A stretch of DNA of 64,000 nt, from the sequence record PV467748.1, one strand, 5' to 3'. The DNA is from a phage. Shown one piece after another: positions 38,485 to 47,265 of the stretch. How positions within the stretch are numbered: the first letter of the stretch is position 1; each line of letters begins with the position of its first letter. Below the pieces are notes generated by a model. It did no database searches. It had not been told where the DNA came from and worked only from the letters and a program-made list of their open reading frames with translations. A program made the translations under genes and the position numbers.

Positions 38485-38912
38485 TGTTCCTTATCCCTGA
38501 TGATTACGAATTAACTCTAGAAAGTGTAGAGGCCAAAATTCCAGAAGCACAGGGACGTTTTGCTGCTCTTTCTGAAGCGCTCGAGAAAAGCGATATAAAT
38601 AATCTTGTAGAGAACATGATTGCTGAAGGCGATATCGAATGTGCTATCGCTCTTGGTTCTTTAAATGAATCAATGCCTCTTAACGAATTTATCGTTAAAC
38701 ACGTTTCCTCTAAAGGTGAGCTTACTCGTACTAAAGATATTAAAACCCGTCAACGTAACGCATTCCAAACGACCGGTTTATCTAAAGCAAAGCGCCGTCA
38801 GATTGCTCGCAAAGCATCTAAAACCAAACGTGCTAATCCATCTACTCAAGTGCGTGCTGAACGTAAGCGTAAGAAAGCCCGTTCTAAACGTAAAGCTTTT
38901 GGACTTAACTAA
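38484..38912 (+). CDS. 68: prohead core protein gp68
   Basis: 142 aa, basic C-terminus; synteny. Confidence 0.75.
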
Positions 38913-39547
38913 TGAAACCTGAATTGCTCATCGAACATTGGGGACAACCAGGTGAAATTATCGATGGGGTTCCTATGTTGGAATCTCATGATGGAAAAAA
39001 TTCTGGGCTTGCTCCCGGCCTTTATATAGAAGGCATTTTCATGCAAGCAGAGGTAGTTAACCGTAATAAACGCCTTTACCCAAAACCTATTTTGGAAAAA
39101 GCCGTTGCCGATTATATGGCTGAACAGGTTGCTACTAAACAAGCTTTAGGAGAATTAAACCATCCACCTCGTGCTAACGTTGACCCTATGCAAGCTGCTA
39201 TCATTATTGAAGATATGTGGTGGAAAGGTAATGATGTTTATGGACGTGCACGTATCATCGAAGGTGACCATGGCCCGGGTGATAAACTAGCCGCAAATAT
39301 TCGAGCGGGTTGGGTTCCTGGTGTTAGTTCTCGTGGTCTTGGTTCTTTAACCGAAACCAATAAAGGATATAAGCGTGTAAACGAAGGTTATAAATTAACC
39401 GTCGGCGTTGATGCAGTATGGGGACCATCTGCTCCTGATGCTTATGTAACTCCGAAGCAAATTACAGAATCACAAACGGTAGAAACCGATACCAGTGCCG
39501 ATGACGCCTTTATGGCTCTCGCAGAGGCCATGAAAAAAGCGTTATAA
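38912..39547 (+). CDS. 21: prohead core protease gp21
   Basis: Size 211 aa (T4 212) and synteny. Confidence 0.85.
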   Translation: MKPELLIEHWGQPGEIIDGVPMLESHDGKNSGLAPGLYIEGIFMQAEVVNRNKRLYPKPILEKAVADYMAEQVATKQALGELNHPPRANVDPMQAAIIIEDMWWKGNDVYGRARIIEGDHGPGDKLAANIRAGWVPGVSSRGLGSLTETNKGYKRVNEGYKLTVGVDAVWGPSAPDAYVTPKQITESQTVETDTSADDAFMALAEAMKKAL

Positions 39548-40414: not shown

Positions 40415-41974
40415 ATGAAAAAGAATGCATTAGTTCAAAAATGGTCCGCTCTGCTGGAAAACGAAGCCCTTCCTGAAATCGTGGGTGCTTCTAAACAAGC
40501 TATCATCGCTAAAATTTTCGAAAACCAGGAACAAGACATCCTGACTGCTCCGGAATACCGTGATGAAAAAATCTCTGAAGCATTTGGTTCTTTCCTGACC
40601 GAAGCTGAAATTGGTGGTGACCACGGTTATGATGCTACCAATATCGCAGCTGGCCAGACTTCTGGTGCTGTAACTCAGATTGGGCCGGCAGTAATGGGTA
40701 TGGTTCGTCGTGCTATTCCTCATCTGATTGCTTTTGATATTTGTGGTGTTCAGCCTCTGAATAACCCTACCGGCCAGGTATTTGCCCTTCGTGCAGTTTA
40801 TGGTAAAGACCCTATCGCTGCTGGCGCTAAAGAAGCTTTCCATCCGATGTATTCTCCGGACGCTATGTTCTCTGGTCAGGGCGCTGCTCAGACTTTTGAA
40901 GCACTGGCTGCAAGCAAAGTTCTGGAAGTTGGTAAAATTTATTCTCACTTCTTCGAAGCTACCGGTGCTGCACACTTCCAGGCTGTTGAAGCTGTAACCG
41001 TTGATGCTGCTGCTACCGATGCCGCTAAACTGGATGCTGCTGTTACCGCTTTGATTGAAGCTGGTAAGTTGGCTGAATTGGCTGAAGGTATGGCTACTTC
41101 TATCGCTGAACTTCAGGAAGGCTTTAACGGTTCTACTGATAACCCGTGGAACGAAATGGGCTTCCGTATCGATAAACAAGTTATCGAAGCTAAATCTCGT
41201 CAGCTGAAAGCAAGCTACTCTATCGAACTGGCACAGGACCTTCGTGCAGTACACGGTATGGATGCAGATGCTGAACTGTCCGGTATCCTTGCTACCGAAA
41301 TTATGCTCGAAATCAACCGTGAAGTTATCGATTGGATTAACTACTCTGCACAGGTTGGTAAATCTGGTATGACCAACACCGTTGGCGCTAAAGCTGGTGT
41401 GTTTGACTTCCAGGACCCGATTGATATCCGTGGTGCTCGTTGGGCCGGTGAGAGCTTTAAAGCCCTTCTGTTCCAGATTGATAAAGAAGCAGCCGAAATC
41501 GCTCGTCAGACCGGTCGTGGTGCTGGTAACTTCATCATCGCTTCCCGTAACGTAGTTAACGTACTGGCTGCAGTTGATACTTCTGTAAGTTATGCAGCTC
41601 AAGGTCTGGGTCAGGGTTTCAACGTTGACACAACCAAAGCAGTATTTGCCGGTGTTCTTGGTGGTAAATATCGTGTTTACATCGACCAGTATGCTCGTTC
41701 CGATTACTTCACCATCGGTTATAAAGGTTCCAACGAAATGGACGCAGGTATCTACTATGCTCCGTACGTTGCACTGACTCCGCTGCGTGGTTCCGATCCG
41801 AAGAACTTCCAACCGGTAATGGGCTTCAAAACTCGTTACGGTATCGGTATTAACCCGTTCGCTGACCCAGCTGCTCAGGCGCCTACCAAACGTATTCAGA
41901 ATGGTATGCCTGACATCGTTAACAGCCTCGGTCTGAATGGTTACTTCCGTCGCGTATATGTTAAAGGTATCTAA
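40415..41974 (+). CDS. 23: major capsid protein gp23
   Basis: Long near-identical stretches to T4 gp23 as recalled (QAIIAKIFENQE..., GDHGY.ATNIAAGQTSGAVTQIGPAVMGMVRRAIP). Confidence 0.97.
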   Translation: MKKNALVQKWSALLENEALPEIVGASKQAIIAKIFENQEQDILTAPEYRDEKISEAFGSFLTEAEIGGDHGYDATNIAAGQTSGAVTQIGPAVMGMVRRAIPHLIAFDICGVQPLNNPTGQVFALRAVYGKDPIAAGAKEAFHPMYSPDAMFSGQGAAQTFEALAASKVLEVGKIYSHFFEATGAAHFQAVEAVTVDAAATDAAKLDAAVTALIEAGKLAELAEGMATSIAELQEGFNGSTDNPWNEMGFRIDKQVIEAKSRQLKASYSIELAQDLRAVHGMDADAELSGILATEIMLEINREVIDWINYSAQVGKSGMTNTVGAKAGVFDFQDPIDIRGARWAGESFKALLFQIDKEAAEIARQTGRGAGNFIIASRNVVNVLAAVDTSVSYAAQGLGQGFNVDTTKAVFAGVLGGKYRVYIDQYARSDYFTIGYKGSNEMDAGIYYAPYVALTPLRGSDPKNFQPVMGFKTRYGIGINPFADPAAQAPTKRIQNGMPDIVNSLGLNGYFRRVYVKGI

Positions 41975-41989
41975 TATAAACCTTATTAT

Positions 41990-42018
41990 GGGAGACTTCG
42001 GTCTCCCATTCTTGTTTC
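41990..42018 (+). terminator. rho-independent terminator GGGAGACTTCGGTCTCCC after gene 23
   Basis: Perfect 7-bp stem with TTCG loop, then ATTCTTGTTT. Confidence 0.65.
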
Positions 42019-42022
42019 TATA

Positions 42023-42289
42023 CTATGCAATCTTAACACGATGGTTGATGATATCACGGAAGTCAATACGATTTTCTTGGATTTTCAGCCAGTTACCAGA
42101 TTTGTCTTTGGTATGGGTAGAGTATTCACCGTTCCACCAGAAGTCGGTAGCATAAGCCATGGCTTCGTATTTCTTAACTAGTGCATTCACTGCATTACCG
42201 TTAGGATTGGAACCATATTTTTCTACCAGGGCTTTGATGTCTTTATCAAGAGCGGAAAGAGTAGTACGAATAAAGTTTAACTTGTTCAT
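42023..42289 (-). CDS. hypothetical protein (antisense gene inside capsid cluster)
   Basis: ORF track 42023..42304 trimmed to ATG (MNKLNF...) 8 nt after GAGGAG; own early promoter upstream. Confidence 0.6.
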   Translation of the reverse strand: MNKLNFIRTTLSALDKDIKALVEKYGSNPNGNAVNALVKKYEAMAYATDFWWNGEYSTHTKDKSGNWLKIQENRIDFRDIINHRVKIA

Positions 42290-42303
42290 TTTTAATCTCC
42301 TCA

Positions 42304-42348
42304 TGTTTTGATAGGTCTATAGTAACATGTGATAACCTTGCTGTAAAC
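42304..42348 (-). promoter_or_regulatory. conserved early promoter/leader element, copy 4
   Basis: GTTTAC-N18-TACTAT-AGACCTATCAAAACA on minus strand, upstream of the 42023..42289 gene. Confidence 0.55.
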
Positions 42349-42354
42349 AACTTT

Positions 42355-42362
42355 TATAAATA
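42355..42362 (+). promoter_or_regulatory. T4 late promoter TATAAATA for gene 24
   Basis: Exact TATAAATA about 29 nt upstream of the gene 24 ATG. Confidence 0.6.
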
Positions 42363-42390
42363 AACATATACCCTCAATAAGGAAAGCGCA

Positions 42391-43674
42391 ATGGCAAAGA
42401 TTAACGAATTACTGCGCGAGTCAACAACTACTTCTAGCAACTCATTGGGTCGCCCTAATCTTGTTGCTTTGACCCGTGCTACAACCAAATTGATTTACCG
42501 TGATATTATTGCTGAACAACGTACTAGCCAGCCTATTGCTGCATTGTATGGTGTCAAATATCTTACTCCTGATAATGAATTTAGCTTCCAAACTGGTGCC
42601 GTTTATGGTGGTGAAGTTGGTTCTAAAGACCGTGAAACTATCCCGGAACTCACAGATAAGGCCCAGGCTATTGCCAAGGGTGAATATTTCAAGTATCAGA
42701 ACATAGTTTATAAGGCTCTTCAAGCAAGCCCACTCGCATCCACTAGCGCTACAGGATTGGCTGATGCTCTTCAAGAAGGTTTAGTGTCATTAACATGTCG
42801 TCTGGTTCCGGACGCTGCTCATACCACTAAATTCGAAGCGAGTGATGTAGAAATCTCTGATGCTGTATTCCAGGTAAATAAATGGAATGCTCCTGTTAAG
42901 ACTCGTAAATTGAAGACTGCTTTGACAGTAGAATTGGCACAGGATATGGAATCAAATGGATTCGACGCCCCTGCATTCTTAGAAGACCTCCTGGCTACAG
43001 TAATGGCAGATGAAATTAATAAAGACGTTCTGCAATCCTTGATTACGGTATCTAAACGTTATAAAGTTACCGGTGTATCTGATAACGGCATCATAGATTT
43101 GACTTATGATAGTGCTCCGGAATCTGCACGTAAACTTTATGAAATTGTTTGTGAGATGAATTCTGAAATCCAGAAAACTACTTCTTATTCTGGTACGTTT
43201 GTTGTGGCTTCAAGTCGTGTGGCTGCAATGCTTGCAGGTTCTGGCTGGTTAAAACATAAACCTGAAGATAATAATTGGCTCCCAGAAACCGCCTATGGGT
43301 ATTTGTTGAATGGATTACCTCTGTTCTGTGACGTTAACAGCCCGTTGGATTATGTTATCGTCGGTGTTAAAGAGAACTATGGTGGTAATGAAGTTGTCGG
43401 TTCTATTTTCTATGCCCCGTATACAGAAGGCCTGGATTTAGACGACCAAGAACACGTTGGCGCTTATAAGGTTATTGTCGACCCGGATTCATTACAGCCT
43501 TCTATTTCTCTGATGGTTCGTTATGCACTGTCCGCTAATCCATACACCGTAGCTAAAGACGATAAAGAAGCTCGTGTTATAGATGCAACTAATATGGATT
43601 TAATGGCGGGCCAGAGTAATATGTCTTATCTGCTTGGTGTTAAACTTCCAGCAATTATTTACGAGGCTGATTAA
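42391..43674 (+). CDS. 24: capsid vertex protein gp24
   Basis: 427 aa as in T4; position after gene 23. Confidence 0.85.
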   Translation: MAKINELLRESTTTSSNSLGRPNLVALTRATTKLIYRDIIAEQRTSQPIAALYGVKYLTPDNEFSFQTGAVYGGEVGSKDRETIPELTDKAQAIAKGEYFKYQNIVYKALQASPLASTSATGLADALQEGLVSLTCRLVPDAAHTTKFEASDVEISDAVFQVNKWNAPVKTRKLKTALTVELAQDMESNGFDAPAFLEDLLATVMADEINKDVLQSLITVSKRYKVTGVSDNGIIDLTYDSAPESARKLYEIVCEMNSEIQKTTSYSGTFVVASSRVAAMLAGSGWLKHKPEDNNWLPETAYGYLLNGLPLFCDVNSPLDYVIVGVKENYGGNEVVGSIFYAPYTEGLDLDDQEHVGAYKVIVDPDSLQPSISLMVRYALSANPYTVAKDDKEARVIDATNMDLMAGQSNMSYLLGVKLPAIIYEAD

Positions 43675-44954
43675 TGTCTAAGATTGTAGACCTAATTAAA
43701 GAATCCACATTGACGGCTGCCAACTCGGTTGGCCGTCCTGCTCTTCTTTCATACACCCAAGCAACTAATAAACGAATCTTTAAAGCCTTAGTTGCTGAAC
43801 AAAAAACAAGTCAACCTGTTGCCGCTCTGTACGGGGTTCGTGTACTTAATCCTGATGACAAAATGACTTATCTTGGTGGCGCTACATTTGCAGGCCAGAT
43901 TGGTATGTCGGAACGTGAAAATATTCCTGAATTTACCGATTCGTCTACAGCTTATGCAGCCGGCGATATGTTCCAGTTTGAAAGTGTAGTGTTTAAAGTT
44001 CTGGAAGCATCTCCTTTCGCCGGAACCACAGAAACTGACCTCGGTGAAGTTATTTCTGAAGCAGTGGCTGCTGGGCATATTCGTATGGTATCAGATGCGG
44101 CTATTACTTCTAAATTCGAACAGGGCCATCCTGAAATTGCTGAAGCAGGCTTCCGTATTGATAAGTGGCAGACTGAAGTTAAATCACGTAAACTGAAAAC
44201 TTCATTGACCGTCGAATTAGCCCAAGATCTAGAATCAAACGGGTTTAATGCTCCTAATTTCGTTGAAAACCTGCTAGGCATTCAAATGGCAGAAGAAATT
44301 AATAAGGACGTATTACAGTCATTAATTACGGTGAGTTCTCGTTTTAAAGTCCAGGGTGTTTCCGAAAAGGGTGTATTGGACCTTACCAACCCACGTTACG
44401 ATAATGCTCAGGACCGTGCTCGTACATTGTATTATTACATGTGTGAGATGAACTCTGCCGTACAACGCCAGACTTCTTTCGCTGGGACTTATGCAGTAGC
44501 TAGTTCTCGTTGTGCCGCTATTCTTGCCGCATCTGGTTGGGTTGAGAAAAAGGAAGACCAAGACGAACTGGCTTACGGTATATTAAAAAATGGCCTGCCT
44601 CTTTATGCCGATATGAATAGTCCGTGTGATTATGTTATTGTTGGTGTAAATGCTCAGATGGGTGAAGGACAGACGGTCGCATCTTTATATTATGCGCCTT
44701 ATACGGAAGGTTTGAATGAGGTTGATGAGGAAGGGGATACTTCAGTAGGTGAATTTAAGGTTATTGTTGACCCGGAAAGCTTACAACCTACAGTAGCATT
44801 GCTTGCTCGTTATGCATTGACTGCAAACCCTTATACCGTCGCTAAGGACGATAAAGAAGCCCGCATTATTGATGGTTCTGATATGGACAAAATGGCTAAT
44901 CAAAGTCAATTGAGTTCTTATCTCGGTGTAAAATTACCACCTTTAGAAAAATAA
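43674..44954 (+). CDS. second gp24-like capsid vertex protein (diverged tandem paralog)
   Basis: 426 aa, alignable along its length to the preceding ORF (shared LAQD.ESNGF.AP.F.E.LL, ALSANPYTVAKDDKEAR.ID). Confidence 0.85.
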   Translation: MSKIVDLIKESTLTAANSVGRPALLSYTQATNKRIFKALVAEQKTSQPVAALYGVRVLNPDDKMTYLGGATFAGQIGMSERENIPEFTDSSTAYAAGDMFQFESVVFKVLEASPFAGTTETDLGEVISEAVAAGHIRMVSDAAITSKFEQGHPEIAEAGFRIDKWQTEVKSRKLKTSLTVELAQDLESNGFNAPNFVENLLGIQMAEEINKDVLQSLITVSSRFKVQGVSEKGVLDLTNPRYDNAQDRARTLYYYMCEMNSAVQRQTSFAGTYAVASSRCAAILAASGWVEKKEDQDELAYGILKNGLPLYADMNSPCDYVIVGVNAQMGEGQTVASLYYAPYTEGLNEVDEEGDTSVGEFKVIVDPESLQPTVALLARYALTANPYTVAKDDKEARIIDGSDMDKMANQSQLSSYLGVKLPPLEK

Positions 44955-44978
44955 AAGGGACCGTGAGGTCCCTTTTTC
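44953..44978. terminator. bidirectional terminator AAAAGGGACCGTGAGGTCCCTTTTT
   Basis: GC stem flanked by A-run and T-run between convergent genes. Confidence 0.7.
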
Positions 44979-44980
44979 AT

Positions 44981-45988
44981 TTATTTGGATACTAGGTCAA
45001 TCCATACTGCTCGTAGGGTATCTTTTACACACTCAACGAGCTGCTTTTTAACTTCAACAGGATTTTCAGCATCAGTTAATTCTAATTCTTCACGGGCAGC
45101 TTCTTCTAAGATATCTTGGACTGTCAAGCCCATTACCTTTCCAAAATCCTTCGGCGATACTTCACCAATCTTACTGATGACGTTGTTAATGCGGTTAACA
45201 GTCACATAATCAGTGAATTGCCACATCAAGTCCATATCGTCTTGGGATAAAACCACTGCAACTTTAATAGGCTTATCAGACTTTTTCTTCTCGCTGAATT
45301 TAGAGTTCTTACATTTAATCGCTACACGATTTCCGTTTGGAAGCCAGATAGGAACATCAGGTTTCAGTACAAAGCCTTCGGCGGTGAATACTTTACCTTC
45401 TACCTTAGGAATAAAATCTGTTGAGTTCGCAATAGTTAGGCCAGCATTATCCACTGCAAAATTATAATCAGGAACAACAGAATCAAAATCATTAGGAAGT
45501 TTAATAAGGTCTTCAAAGCTACCAGTGGCCAGACATGGCGCAACCTTAAACTTATGGATAATACAGAAGGCTTCCATCAATGTATCGGATAGAACAGATT
45601 CTGAGCCATCTTCCTTAGTAACTCGGATATCGAACACATAAAAGTCTTTATCACCGTAATCCACATTCTTCTGGATACCCGGCCCAGCGAATTCGCCGTA
45701 AATTTGATATGACTGATAATTAATCGATTCAATTAGATGTTGAACGGATTTAATAGAATCAGCATAATTCTTTAAAACAATTTCATAACCAAAGAAATCT
45801 TCAGCAGGGAGGATAGGGCCAGTGCGCTTGGCGCATGTGACTGCGTCACGTTCTATGATTAAACTAAAGTTGGTCCCATGAATCTTCTCACGTGCCACCC
45901 ATTCACCACCAGTCAAACCGTTAGTACGGAGTTTTTCGATAAACTTACTGTTGTAGTGGTTTTCGAGACTGCTATATTTCTTGAACAT
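44981..45988 (-). CDS. rnlB: RNA ligase 2 (Rnl2)
   Basis: N-terminus [20 protein letters not shown]...[22 protein letters not shown] matches T4 Rnl2 as recalled, including the KxHGxN nucleotidyltransferase motif. Confidence 0.93.
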
Positions 45989-46416: not shown

Positions 46417-47265
46417 TTAATAAACGTAATCGTATATAATACCAGCTTCTAAAGTGGTGCGATGAATAATTCGACCATTACGAGATTCTTGTACATCAAC
46501 CTCTGGATAGTCGGTAATCATTTTTTGAAGTGTATACCGGTGCAAATAATACGGGCTATCCGGGTCATCTGTTTTCCAGTCTTTGCCTTCAAGAGTCATT
46601 TTCTGGATTTCATCCATAACCCACCAACCGCACCAAATATAAGCTGAATTACGTACTGGCAATGGATGAACGTAAGGTAATTCGCCATCCGGAACCGGTG
46701 CGACTTTAGCCGTGACCGTTACATTACCGGTTTTTGTGACAGTCGCCTGGTTATAATCAGCCGCCGAAACCACAACAGAAACTTCAATAACCTGTGAACC
46801 TTCGGTGCTTGTGTCGATTGTTAGAGTATCCGTGGTGCCAACTACAGGAGAACCGTCTTTCTTCCAAGAATAGGCAAAAGTAGCGCCAGCAGGCGCGCCG
46901 ACTACATCCGCTTTAAAAGAAGCTGGAGTGCCTTCCGGAACATTAATTGATTCTGGGGTTAATGTCACAGAAACACCAGACATAGTTTTATTCTGGATAG
47001 TTAAAGTCGTCTCAGCTTCAGCAGTTTCCGGTTCGCCGTCCGCTGGTGTAGTTGTTGCAACAACTTTAATAGTCTTGCTGCCTGCTGGACCAACAGCAAC
47101 ATAATCCATTGCAGCAGTCACAGAAGATTGAGGAACGCCATCAACGGTCCAGACAAATGATTCAGTACCTTCAGCTGCAGCACCGGAACCGGTCGCAGTG
47201 AAATTGGTTGTTGCTCCAATAACGGCCGTAGCCGCCAAAGGAGAAATATCTACGGTATAAGCCAT
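46417..47265 (-). CDS. hoc: highly immunogenic outer capsid protein Hoc (shortened)
   Basis: N-terminal Ig-like repeats and C-terminal capsid-binding region (GELPYVHPLP...IWCGWWVMDEIQKMT...YYLHRYTLQKM) match T4 Hoc as recalled; 282 vs 376 aa. Confidence 0.85.
   Translation of the reverse strand: MAYTVDISPLAATAVIGATTNFTATGSGAAAEGTESFVWTVDGVPQSSVTAAMDYVAVGPAGSKTIKVVATTTPADGEPETAEAETTLTIQNKTMSGVSVTLTPESINVPEGTPASFKADVVGAPAGATFAYSWKKDGSPVVGTTDTLTIDTSTEGSQVIEVSVVVSAADYNQATVTKTGNVTVTAKVAPVPDGELPYVHPLPVRNSAYIWCGWWVMDEIQKMTLEGKDWKTDDPDSPYYLHRYTLQKMITDYPEVDVQESRNGRIIHRTTLEAGIIYDYVY

Follow-up and report, generated by a model that had tools for sequence, protein, structure and literature searches.

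An old and conserved tandem pair of gp24-type vertex protein genes in a T4-like Dhakavirus

Introduction

T4 is the reference system for a single vertex protein closing a prolate shell. In T4, gp24 is encoded by a single gene and the 11 vertices are homopentamers of this one protein, whereas the phage DNA analysed here (sequence record PV467748.1; a stretch of 64,000 nucleotides, hereafter the window) carries two gp24-like genes in tandem. The window belongs to a JS98/JS10-type Dhakavirus, a T4-like coliphage. What is the second gene, how old is the pair, and what would two vertex proteins do in one head? An initial annotation had suggested that two different proteins could mean mixed or alternative pentamers at the capsid vertices. 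The explanation that we consider best, with a probability of roughly 0.7, is that the two genes form a conserved pair, shared by JS98-type and related T4-like enterobacterial phages and derived from an old duplication or capture, and that both products would be processed vertex shell subunits.

Results and Discussion

Organization of the locus

Both genes occupy a late-gene position in the head-morphogenesis cluster, directly downstream of gene 23, as does the T4 late gene 24. The gene order is 20, 67, 68, 21, 22, 23, 24a, 24b, followed by the convergent rnlB, hoc and inh, and 24b is the second member of a tight tandem flanked by gene 23, which ends at 41974, and by rnlB (minus strand), which ends at 44981. 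A small minus-strand ORF lies between 23 and 24a, and the gene for gp21 (prohead protease) is present at 38912-39547. In the T4 record rnlB directly follows gene 24, in agreement with the initial statement that T4 has a single copy. The features of the locus are the following:

41988..42009, plus strand: terminator-like hairpin after gene 23 (9-bp stem, five G-C pairs, T-rich tail; consensus match only)
42355..42362, plus strand: T4-type late promoter box TATAAATA, an exact match 28 nt upstream of the 24a start (consensus match)
42378..42386, plus strand: Shine-Dalgarno region of 24a, TAAGGAAAG (read from the sequence; consensus match)
42391..43674, plus strand: gene 24a, 427 aa, conservative orthologue of T4 gp24 (capsid vertex protein)
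43663..43666, plus strand: weak Shine-Dalgarno GAGG of 24b, within the last 24a codons (Tyr-Glu-Ala; consensus match)
43674..44954, plus strand: gene 24b, 426 aa, old, derived gp24 paralogue, "vertex protein II"
44953..44976, both strands: terminator-like hairpin between 24b and the convergent rnlB (10-bp stem, five G-C pairs, T-runs on both strands; consensus match only)

The two ORFs of 427 and 426 aa with a 1-nt overlap that were originally reported were recovered exactly, at 42391-43674 and 43674-44954; the final A of the 24a stop codon TAA (43672-43674) is also the first base of the 24b ATG (43674-43676), giving TAATG.

The box TATAAATA is established as a late promoter in T4. No further copy of it occurs between 42363 and 44954, leaving 24b without a consensus late promoter of its own, and sigma-70-like matches at the locus were at background level only. 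The motif (A/G)AGGAAA.. is conserved ahead of the first copy and also precedes T4 gene 24. The same GAGG precedes 24b in Dhakavirus and in S16, with weaker matches in Marfavirus and in metagenome loci. The hairpin at 41988..42009 would mark the upstream boundary of the 24a-24b unit, and the one at 44953..44976 begins at the 24b stop codon. We infer the function of these sequence features: 24a and 24b would form one late, translationally coupled unit, bounded by a single late promoter 5' of 24a and a terminator-like hairpin 3' of 24b.

Both products belong with gp24

Aligned by BLASTP, the two products share 240 of 428 positions (56% identity, 77% similarity, E = 1e-179) over residues 1-422/424, with three small gaps, a similarity far beyond chance that bears out the initial view of two ORFs alignable end to end yet diverged. 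Of the two shared blocks cited at the time, LAQD.ESNGF.AP.F.E.LL is indeed present in both, whereas the second differs by one residue (ALSANPY... in 24a, ALTANPY... in 24b). Both proteins match Pfam family PF07068 (Gp23 family; 329 and 327 bits), and both match T4 gp24, with identities of 71% for 24a and 57% for 24b; the initial reading of two tandem, diverged gp24-like genes holds. In searches against the PDB, 24b matched T4 gp24 (1yue) at E = 1.4e-151 over residues 1-423 without a large indel, and gp23 chains at ∼1e-11; 24b is far nearer to gp24 than to gp23.

The structural comparison points the same way. The best Foldseek match of an AF2 model of 24b (pLDDT 67.5, moderate) was the T4 gp24* chain 5vf3_a (E = 1.9e-49; TM 0.76/0.78), with gp23 chains scoring below it (TM ∼0.6). 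The model predicts for 24b an HK97-type fold with the T4-specific E-loop insertion domain, and 24a probably has the gp24 fold as well, given its 71% identity to the T4 protein. T4 gp24 (PDB 1YUE; capsids 5VF3, 7VS5, 7VRT and 8GMO) has likewise ∼427 aa and an HK97-type fold.

In T4, a 10-residue propeptide is removed from gp24 after Glu10, so that exactly 10 residues are lost (PMC9958956), and the mature T4 chain 5vf3_a aligns with 24b from residue 11. Glu10 and Ser11 were invariant across 42 aligned sequences comprising both paralogue types. Both copies keep the two residues at which the prohead protease cuts T4 gp24. Taken as a whole, 24a and 24b are most likely both processed shell subunits.

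The pair occurs in related phages and is already annotated

A 24b-type gene was found in 117 phage records, and approximately 127 of the 1453 gp24-bearing records have two gp24 copies. The 24b-carrying phages come from many hosts and sources. The tandem pair was confirmed in phages representing six genera. The order was invariably 23-24a-24b, which was established for S16, PWKp16, CIP9, Cronus and VR7 as well as for two metagenome contigs. At all 19 loci examined the junction measured ≤2 nt (as stop/start overlap or as gap) and the gene order was the same. Loss of either copy was not seen in any two-copy lineage examined.

The closest relatives are the JS98-type Dhakavirus phages (JS98, JS10, IME08, Bp7, QL01 and NC-G), which have the same locus, gene order and protein sizes as the window, with DNA identities of 87-96% over 3 kb; in their records genes 24a and 24b are labelled "gp24 head vertex protein". 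Relative to JS98 and JS10 the window is a mosaic, ∼100% JS98-like up to ∼42720 (inside 24a) and JS10-like beyond. Its junction is of the JS10 type (TAATG overlap, 427 + 426 aa); in the JS98 subgroup the stop codon directly adjoins the start codon (426 + 427 aa). Further afield, pairs like that of the window, recorded as vertex protein I/II or 24(1)/24(2), occur in Gaprivervirus (VR7, VR5, VR20 and VR25), Gelderlandvirus (S16, Melville and CGG4-1), Marfavirus (F48 and PWKp16), Kanagawavirus (CIP9) and Roskildevirus (Cronus and FBB1). These five genera share the tandem order and tight junction of the window, and their second copies fall in one clade with its 24b (100% bootstrap); identity to the window's 24b is 91% in VR7, 84% in S16, 79% in Marfavirus and 66% in Cronus. 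Some related lineages have extra genes between 24b and rnlB.

Whether related phages also carry the duplication, a check proposed with the initial annotation, can be answered in the affirmative. They carry the pair, and it is annotated in their records (GenBank names include 24a/24b, 24(1)/24(2) and vertex protein I/II), so the duplication is no peculiarity of this genome. The tandem pair is already known from database annotations and is therefore no discovery in itself. In a limited literature search, no paper was found to discuss the second gp24 copy or to say whether it is present in virions, and where.

An old duplication or an old capture

The relationships among gp24 proteins were taken from a bootstrapped tree built by neighbour-joining only, from Kimura-corrected distances. 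The 24b clade, which includes the window's 24b, is monophyletic in 100 of 100 bootstraps and has a long stem. The 24a protein groups with the first copies of the other two-copy phages (100% bootstrap), as sister to the T4/RB69/CC31 gp24 clade. In each of the 12 genomes tested the two paralogues were 53-57% identical to one another, and the distance matrices of 24a and 24b were strongly correlated (Mantel r 0.94; none of 2000 permutations was as high). The duplication is old, and 24a and 24b have been co-inherited. A recent duplication or an assembly artefact was rejected on the basis of the 56% identity, the saturation of synonymous sites (pS 0.73) and the occurrence of the pair in independent genomes of six genera. 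No compositional signal of a recent foreign acquisition of 24b was seen, GC (0.417 vs 0.425) and GC3 (0.32 vs 0.31) being alike in both copies.

How the second copy came to lie beside the first is less clear. The 24b clade falls outside the clade of 24a and T4 gp24 (95%), but its own placement has a bootstrap of only 25-30%. Such a tree would fit equally an in-situ duplication in the ancestor of 24a and T4 gp24, an older duplication, or capture from another T4-like lineage. Horizontal capture of 24b from a different T4-like lineage, with insertion beside gene 24 rather than tandem duplication in place, appears somewhat unlikely. It draws on the 95%-supported exclusion of 24b just described and on the top identity of 24b (60-65%), found with the one gp24 that Klebsiella phages of the RCIP0032 group carry. 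However, RCIP0032 gp24 is the most similar out-of-group single-copy gp24 for nearly every gp24 compared, which speaks for a short branch and not for a specific relationship. The deep nodes are weak, and base composition is identical in the two copies. A tandem duplication would lead one to expect the shared orientation, the immediate adjacency and the congruent histories of the two genes. We envisage that an ancestral gene 24 either underwent tandem duplication or gained a captured second copy beside it, and that this preceded the separation of the Dhaka-, Gapriver-, Gelderland-, Marfa-, Kanagawa- and Roskildevirus lineages; both copies would have been inherited jointly since, without gene conversion.

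Constraint on both copies and remodelling of 24b

Estimates of dN/dS were 0.03-0.06 in both 24a and 24b, and both copies are under strong purifying selection. Disabling changes in the second copy, named at the outset as something that would count against two different vertex proteins, were not found: in addition to this low dN/dS, 24b is full length in 117/117 records, and the fold and cleavage residues are kept. On the same dN/dS and length data, the idea of 24b as a pseudogene or decaying copy was rejected.

The two copies differ in how far they depart from other gp24 proteins. Departures from the consensus at conserved gp24 columns numbered 3 of 154 in 24a and 19 of 154 in 24b, and 11 of the latter lie within residues 8-72. 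Between the two clades 39 differences are fixed. Replacements in 24b at positions otherwise conserved in gp24s include T32N, L34R, Y36F, K56R, Y57V, T204I and E335Q, and the consensus of the 24b clade has a four-residue gap in the 295-298 region. Aligned with 24a, the window's 24b bears N32, R34, F36, R56 and V57; Q335 and the remainder of the 24b signature are fixed in the clade consensus. On these comparisons 24a is the conservative gp24 orthologue and 24b the derived copy. 24b has evolved no more rapidly than 24a at deep divergences. In our reconstruction 24a would have stayed the canonical vertex protein, while 24b would have passed through an early burst of change, mainly in residues 8-72, before coming under constraint equal to that on 24a. 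Based on the secondary structure of the model, residues 8-72 are provisionally and approximately assigned to the N-arm/E-loop, parts that would touch neighbouring subunits.

Possible roles in the capsid

On the favoured reading, both products would enter the prohead, be trimmed of 10 N-terminal residues by the gp21 protease in the manner of T4 gp24, and end up as shell subunits of the five-fold vertices. The 11 vertices might be shared either as separate homopentamers at different vertices or as mixed pentamers. The mixed or alternative pentamers originally suggested would agree with all of the findings, and the sequence does not discriminate between these arrangements.

One way of sharing would be a division by vertex class: each protein would build homopentamers of its own, placed at vertices that differ in their geometry on the prolate head, for instance the single apical vertex opposite the portal as against the ten shoulder vertices at which the lattices of cap and midsection join. 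In T4 the head combines Tend = 13 caps with a Tmid = 20 midsection (PMC9958956); the surroundings of the 11 gp24 vertices would thus not all be equivalent, a geometry that speaks for such a division. The 24b-specific replacements cluster in residues 8-72, the provisional neighbour-contact segments, with the core conserved; both genes have been kept for very long without gene conversion; and the weaker, coupled ribosome site of 24b would suit unequal amounts of the two proteins. On the other hand, one gp24 is enough for T4 and for many related phages whose heads have the same geometry, and ribosome-site strength predicts protein ratio poorly. We regard a division by vertex class as improbable, and the same low odds apply to one prolate capsid having chemically different vertices, for example one apical pentamer opposite the portal and ten shoulder pentamers.

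Alternatively, either paralogue alone might build all vertices, in homopentamers or random mixed pentamers, with the pair kept since a mixture or a choice aids capsid robustness (temperature, pH, gut). Every gp24 hallmark tested is present in both copies, the pair is found in phages of many hosts and sources, and capsid composition, gp24 included, has been reported to affect the resistance of T4 to environmental stress (PMC10580926), all of which would suit interchangeable or condition-dependent use. Simple redundancy, though, is unlikely to have lasted so long at dN/dS ∼0.05 in both copies with 39 clade-fixed differences, and neither copy was lost in any two-copy lineage examined; we consider this explanation doubtful.

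Least probable, and in our view very unlikely, is that 24b is not a vertex subunit of the mature shell at all, acting instead as a prohead-only assembly, size-determination or protease-triggering factor or at a non-vertex site (e.g. by the portal). Binding of gp24 at the prohead vertices of T4 is thought to trigger activation of the gp21 protease (PMC9958956), a step to which a paralogue might have become dedicated, and the N-terminal region is the most remodelled part of 24b. Yet 24b retains the fold in full, insertion-domain region and C-terminal strands included, with constraint along the entire protein, which is more than one would expect a transient factor to require.

Significance of a second vertex gene

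The 24a-24b pair has a precedent in the older duplication that gave rise to gp24 from gp23, which followed the same principle: a shell gene was duplicated next to itself and one copy became specialised for another lattice position (PMC9958956). However, gp23 and gp24 have ∼20% identity and demonstrated distinct positions (hexamers vs pentamers), whereas 24a and 24b have 56% identity and a difference in position between them is a hypothesis.

Two vertex genes are kept in a sizeable group of close T4 relatives, among them therapeutic-candidate coliphages and phages of Salmonella and Klebsiella. Both have been retained under strong selection from a time that predates the split of at least six genera, which implies that the second protein does something beyond what one gp24 does. 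The position and ratio of 24a and 24b would bear on how elongated capsids accommodate local curvature and lattice environment, and would also be relevant where T4-like heads are engineered as display or delivery vehicles. Should the two proteins occupy different vertices, these phages would have a shell with two dedicated penton proteins besides the hexamer protein, and the pair would represent a second specialisation step following the gp23-to-gp24 duplication.

The gp24-like gene pair and its genomic setting

The initial annotation described two tandem, end-to-end alignable yet substantially diverged gp24-like genes with a 1-nt overlap, and the ORF list for the window agreed exactly with the coordinates of both (24a, the first; 24b, the second). 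The junction reads ...GAT TAA TG..., such that the 24b ATG begins on the final A of the 24a stop codon (TAATG). The two products align collinearly by BLASTP from residue 1 to residue 422/424 with three short gaps (56% identity, 77% similarity, E 1e-179). The gp24 identification of both genes was upheld: each matches Pfam PF07068 over its full length, both were assigned to one PHROG family, and 24b matches the T4 gp24 structure sequence. One of the two shared sequence blocks quoted earlier is identical in both copies; the other was off by one residue, reading ALSANPY in 24a and ALTANPY in 24b. The surroundings are those of the T4 head-gene cluster:

36665, portal protein gp20, upstream of the pair
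between gp20 and gp21, gp67 and gp68
38912, protease gp21
between gp21 and gp23, scaffold gp22
40415-41974, major capsid protein gp23
41988-42009, terminator-like hairpin after gene 23 (consensus match)
42023-42304, minus strand, 93-aa ORF between gene 23 and 24a (phrog_6003, E 1.9e-49; no Pfam match)
42355-42362, T4 late-promoter box TATAAATA, 28 nt upstream of 24a (consensus match)
42391-43674, plus strand, 24a, 427 aa
43674-44954, plus strand, 24b, 426 aa
44953-44976, terminator-like hairpin directly after 24b, facing rnlB (consensus match, both strands scored)
downstream of 24b, rnlB, a DUF2774 gene, hoc and inh, convergent, with uvsW next

In T4, the slot of the 93-aa ORF is instead occupied by the homing endonuclease gene segD. 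Phages IME08 and IME341 hold both a 93-aa-type ORF and an adjoining segD-type endonuclease, and the slot is therefore variable. The Hoc-like ORF (46417-47265, minus strand) encodes 282 aa, compared to 376 codons for the Hoc gene in the T4 record (L001), and its Pfam matches to Ig domains are weak, which suggests that the capsid fibre of this phage may have fewer Ig-like domains than T4 Hoc.

Distribution of the gene pair

The gene pair is already known, and more than 100 sequenced phages carry it. The GenBank records of JS98, JS10 and IME08 name the genes "24a" and "24b, gp24 head vertex protein", VR7 has "24(1)" and "24(2)", VR5, VR20, VR25 and CJ20 have "capsid vertex protein I/II", and CGG4-1 has "head vertex protein I/II"; the duplication is thus an annotated feature. 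A tblastn search with 24b found gp24 homologues at 1580 places in 1453 phage records, so that about 127 records hold two copies. The initial annotation had proposed looking for the duplication in related phages, and 24b-type genes (E 1e-175 or better, at least 66% identity) were indeed present in 117 records, with a full-length match in 117/117, from phages of Escherichia, Klebsiella, Salmonella, Enterobacter, Erwinia, Kosakonia and Proteus.

Representatives of six genera were inspected (Dhakavirus, Gaprivervirus VR7, Gelderlandvirus S16, Marfavirus PWKp16, Kanagawavirus CIP9 and Roskildevirus Cronus), along with two metagenome contigs bearing divergent members. The gene order 23, 24a-type, 24b-type was found throughout, the last two genes either overlapping or lying no more than 2 nt apart. 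A single gp24 was found in a Mosigvirus, Klebsiella phage RCIP0032, a Krischvirus, a Slopekvirus, a Biquartavirus and T4, whose record holds one gene 24, as had been claimed. Insertions are tolerated downstream of 24b: Erwinia phage Cronus and a related metagenome contig (L018 5326-6841 and L020 3027-4542) have two additional plus-strand genes before the convergent block, of about 337 aa ("tail fiber protein") and 166 aa ("Hoc-like head decoration"), and Marfavirus PWKp16 has one additional plus-strand ORF.

Evolutionary history

Neighbor-joining trees were built from 142 gp24 homologues, with a bootstrap version of 53 taxa. All second copies fell in one clade (100/100 bootstrap), whose stem is long (0.18). 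First copies from Marfavirus, Gelderlandvirus and Dhakavirus formed a 100% clade, whose sister group (83%) holds the single-copy gp24s of phages such as T4, RB69, CC31 and Merlin; a 95% clade united these first copies, the T4-type single gp24s and the Roskildevirus first copy, with 24b outside. Across the 12 genomes with both genes, 24a/24b identity within a genome was constant at 53–57%, and the two pairwise-distance matrices were strongly congruent (Mantel r 0.94, reached by 0 of 2000 permutations). At deep divergence, 24b did not change faster than 24a (window versus Marfavirus, 27% for 24a and 20% for 24b).

Our reading is of a single old event, no later than the last ancestor shared by the two-copy genera, for which tandem duplication would be the simplest form. 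24b would then have undergone a rapid initial divergence, after which both genes would have been co-inherited without gene conversion, the second copy being absent or lost in the T4/RB69/CC31 branch. Alternatively, 24b may have been captured from another T4-like lineage. Its branch point in the gp24 tree had bootstrap support of only 25–30%, and its highest identity to any single-copy gp24 was 60–65%, to the RCIP0032 group. This identity is nonspecific, since for nearly every gp24 compared RCIP0032 is the nearest single-copy gp24 beyond that sequence's own group, indicating a short branch; base composition is equal in 24a and 24b.

Megablast of 42000-45000 matched 140 phage records, the top being Dhakavirus members (NC-G 95.7%, JS10 94.9%, QL01 and Bp7 ∼93.5%, JS98 87%). 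Comparison over 41700-45260 demonstrated that the window is recombinant, with a breakpoint near 42720 inside 24a, at about codon 110: identity to JS98 is 99–100% from the end of gene 23 to a point ∼330 nt into 24a and falls to 73–87% past the breakpoint, where identity to JS10 is about 93–99% over the rest of 24a and 24b (89% in the last ∼130 nt). Synonymous divergence from JS98 (0.53 for 24a versus 1.15 for 24b) agrees with this. Homologous exchange among Dhakavirus lineages involves the vertex genes.

Constraint and divergence of the two copies

24b shows no disabling changes of the kind that would argue against two functional vertex proteins, as judged by low dN/dS, by the sequence and fold match to gp24 and by retention of Glu10 and Ser11. 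Within Dhakavirus, Nei-Gojobori dN/dS was 0.03–0.06 for 24a and 0.03–0.06 for 24b, indicating strong purifying selection on both; synonymous sites between 24a and 24b were saturated (pS 0.73). The match of 24b to the T4 gp24 crystal-structure sequence spanned residues 1–423 (E 1.4e-151; gp23, about 1e-11). When 24b was modelled with AlphaFold2 (moderate quality, pLDDT 67.5), the best structural match was the mature form of T4 gp24 as it occurs in the capsid (5vf3_a, E 1.9e-49, TM 0.76), with gp23 chains scoring lower. The first 10 residues of T4 gp24 are removed by the gp21 prohead protease (PMC9958956); the 5vf3_a alignment begins at residue 11, and in 42 aligned sequences covering both paralogue types neither Glu10 nor Ser11 varies.

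At 154 columns at least 90% conserved among other gp24 sequences, a set which probably includes first copies of some two-copy phages with no effect on the direction, the 24a-clade consensus carries 3 replacements and that of the 24b clade carries 19. Of these 19, eleven fall within residues 8–72 (L8I, L27Y, R29Q, T32N, L34R, Y36F, D38A, K56R, Y57V, F66Y and Y72F). By these counts, 24a is the conservative T4 gp24 orthologue and 24b a derived paralogue with changes concentrated in its N-terminal 72 residues. The clades are fixed differently at 39 positions, between-clade identity is lowest at 21–40, 61–80, 121–140, 281–300 and 321–340, and the 24b consensus has a 4-residue gap within 281–300. 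On the secondary structure of the model, residues 8–72 provisionally span the N-terminal arm together with the strand of the E-loop that enters the insertion domain, an assignment limited by pLDDT below 50 for residues 1–44. In T4, the N-arm and E-loop form contacts both within and between capsomers, and upon expansion the N-arm shifts to the outer surface (PMC9958956).

Expression signals

No further TATAAATA was found between the copy upstream of 24a and the end of 24b. The 24a ribosome site, TAAGGAAAG, is conserved in T4 gene 24, and 24b has only GAGG, within the 24a-terminal Tyr-Glu-Ala codons, plus the stop/start overlap (consensus matches). From these signals we infer one late bicistronic transcript with translationally coupled synthesis, possibly yielding less 24b than 24a. 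The conserved Tyr-Glu-Ala codons encode the GAGG of 24b, placing a dual constraint on the 24a C-terminus.

Window-wide, TATAAATA occurs 16 times versus 7.7 expected (0 of 100 shuffles reached 16), with 13 on the plus strand and most just upstream of plus-strand head and tail genes at 28–42 kb, as expected for T4-type late promoters. Dhakavirus has two junction types (window 43660-43676, compared with loci L002, L003, L009–L012 and L017–L021 of other phages and contigs): the TAATG overlap with 24a ending ...IIYEAD (window, JS10, Bp7, QL01, NC-G), and TAA followed directly by ATG with 24a ending ...IIYEA (JS98, MN04, IME08, IME341).

Proposed roles at the capsid vertices

We infer that both products enter proheads, are trimmed by gp21 and then serve as vertex subunits. 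Simple redundancy of the two is unlikely because the pair is old and both of its members are constrained, and a purely transient assembly role for 24b is likewise improbable, its entire fold being conserved. The subunits might form separate homopentamers at different vertices, combine in mixed pentamers, or be used alternatively according to conditions. In the prolate T4 head the caps are Tend = 13 and the midsection is Tmid = 20 (PMC9958956), and the surroundings of its one apical vertex thus differ from those of its ten shoulder vertices; an attractive reading would be a division of labour between 24a and 24b at these two sites. In the literature examined, no experimental statement was found on what the second vertex protein does or where it sits. 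Two kinds of vertex subunit, as first proposed, would be a reasonable reading.
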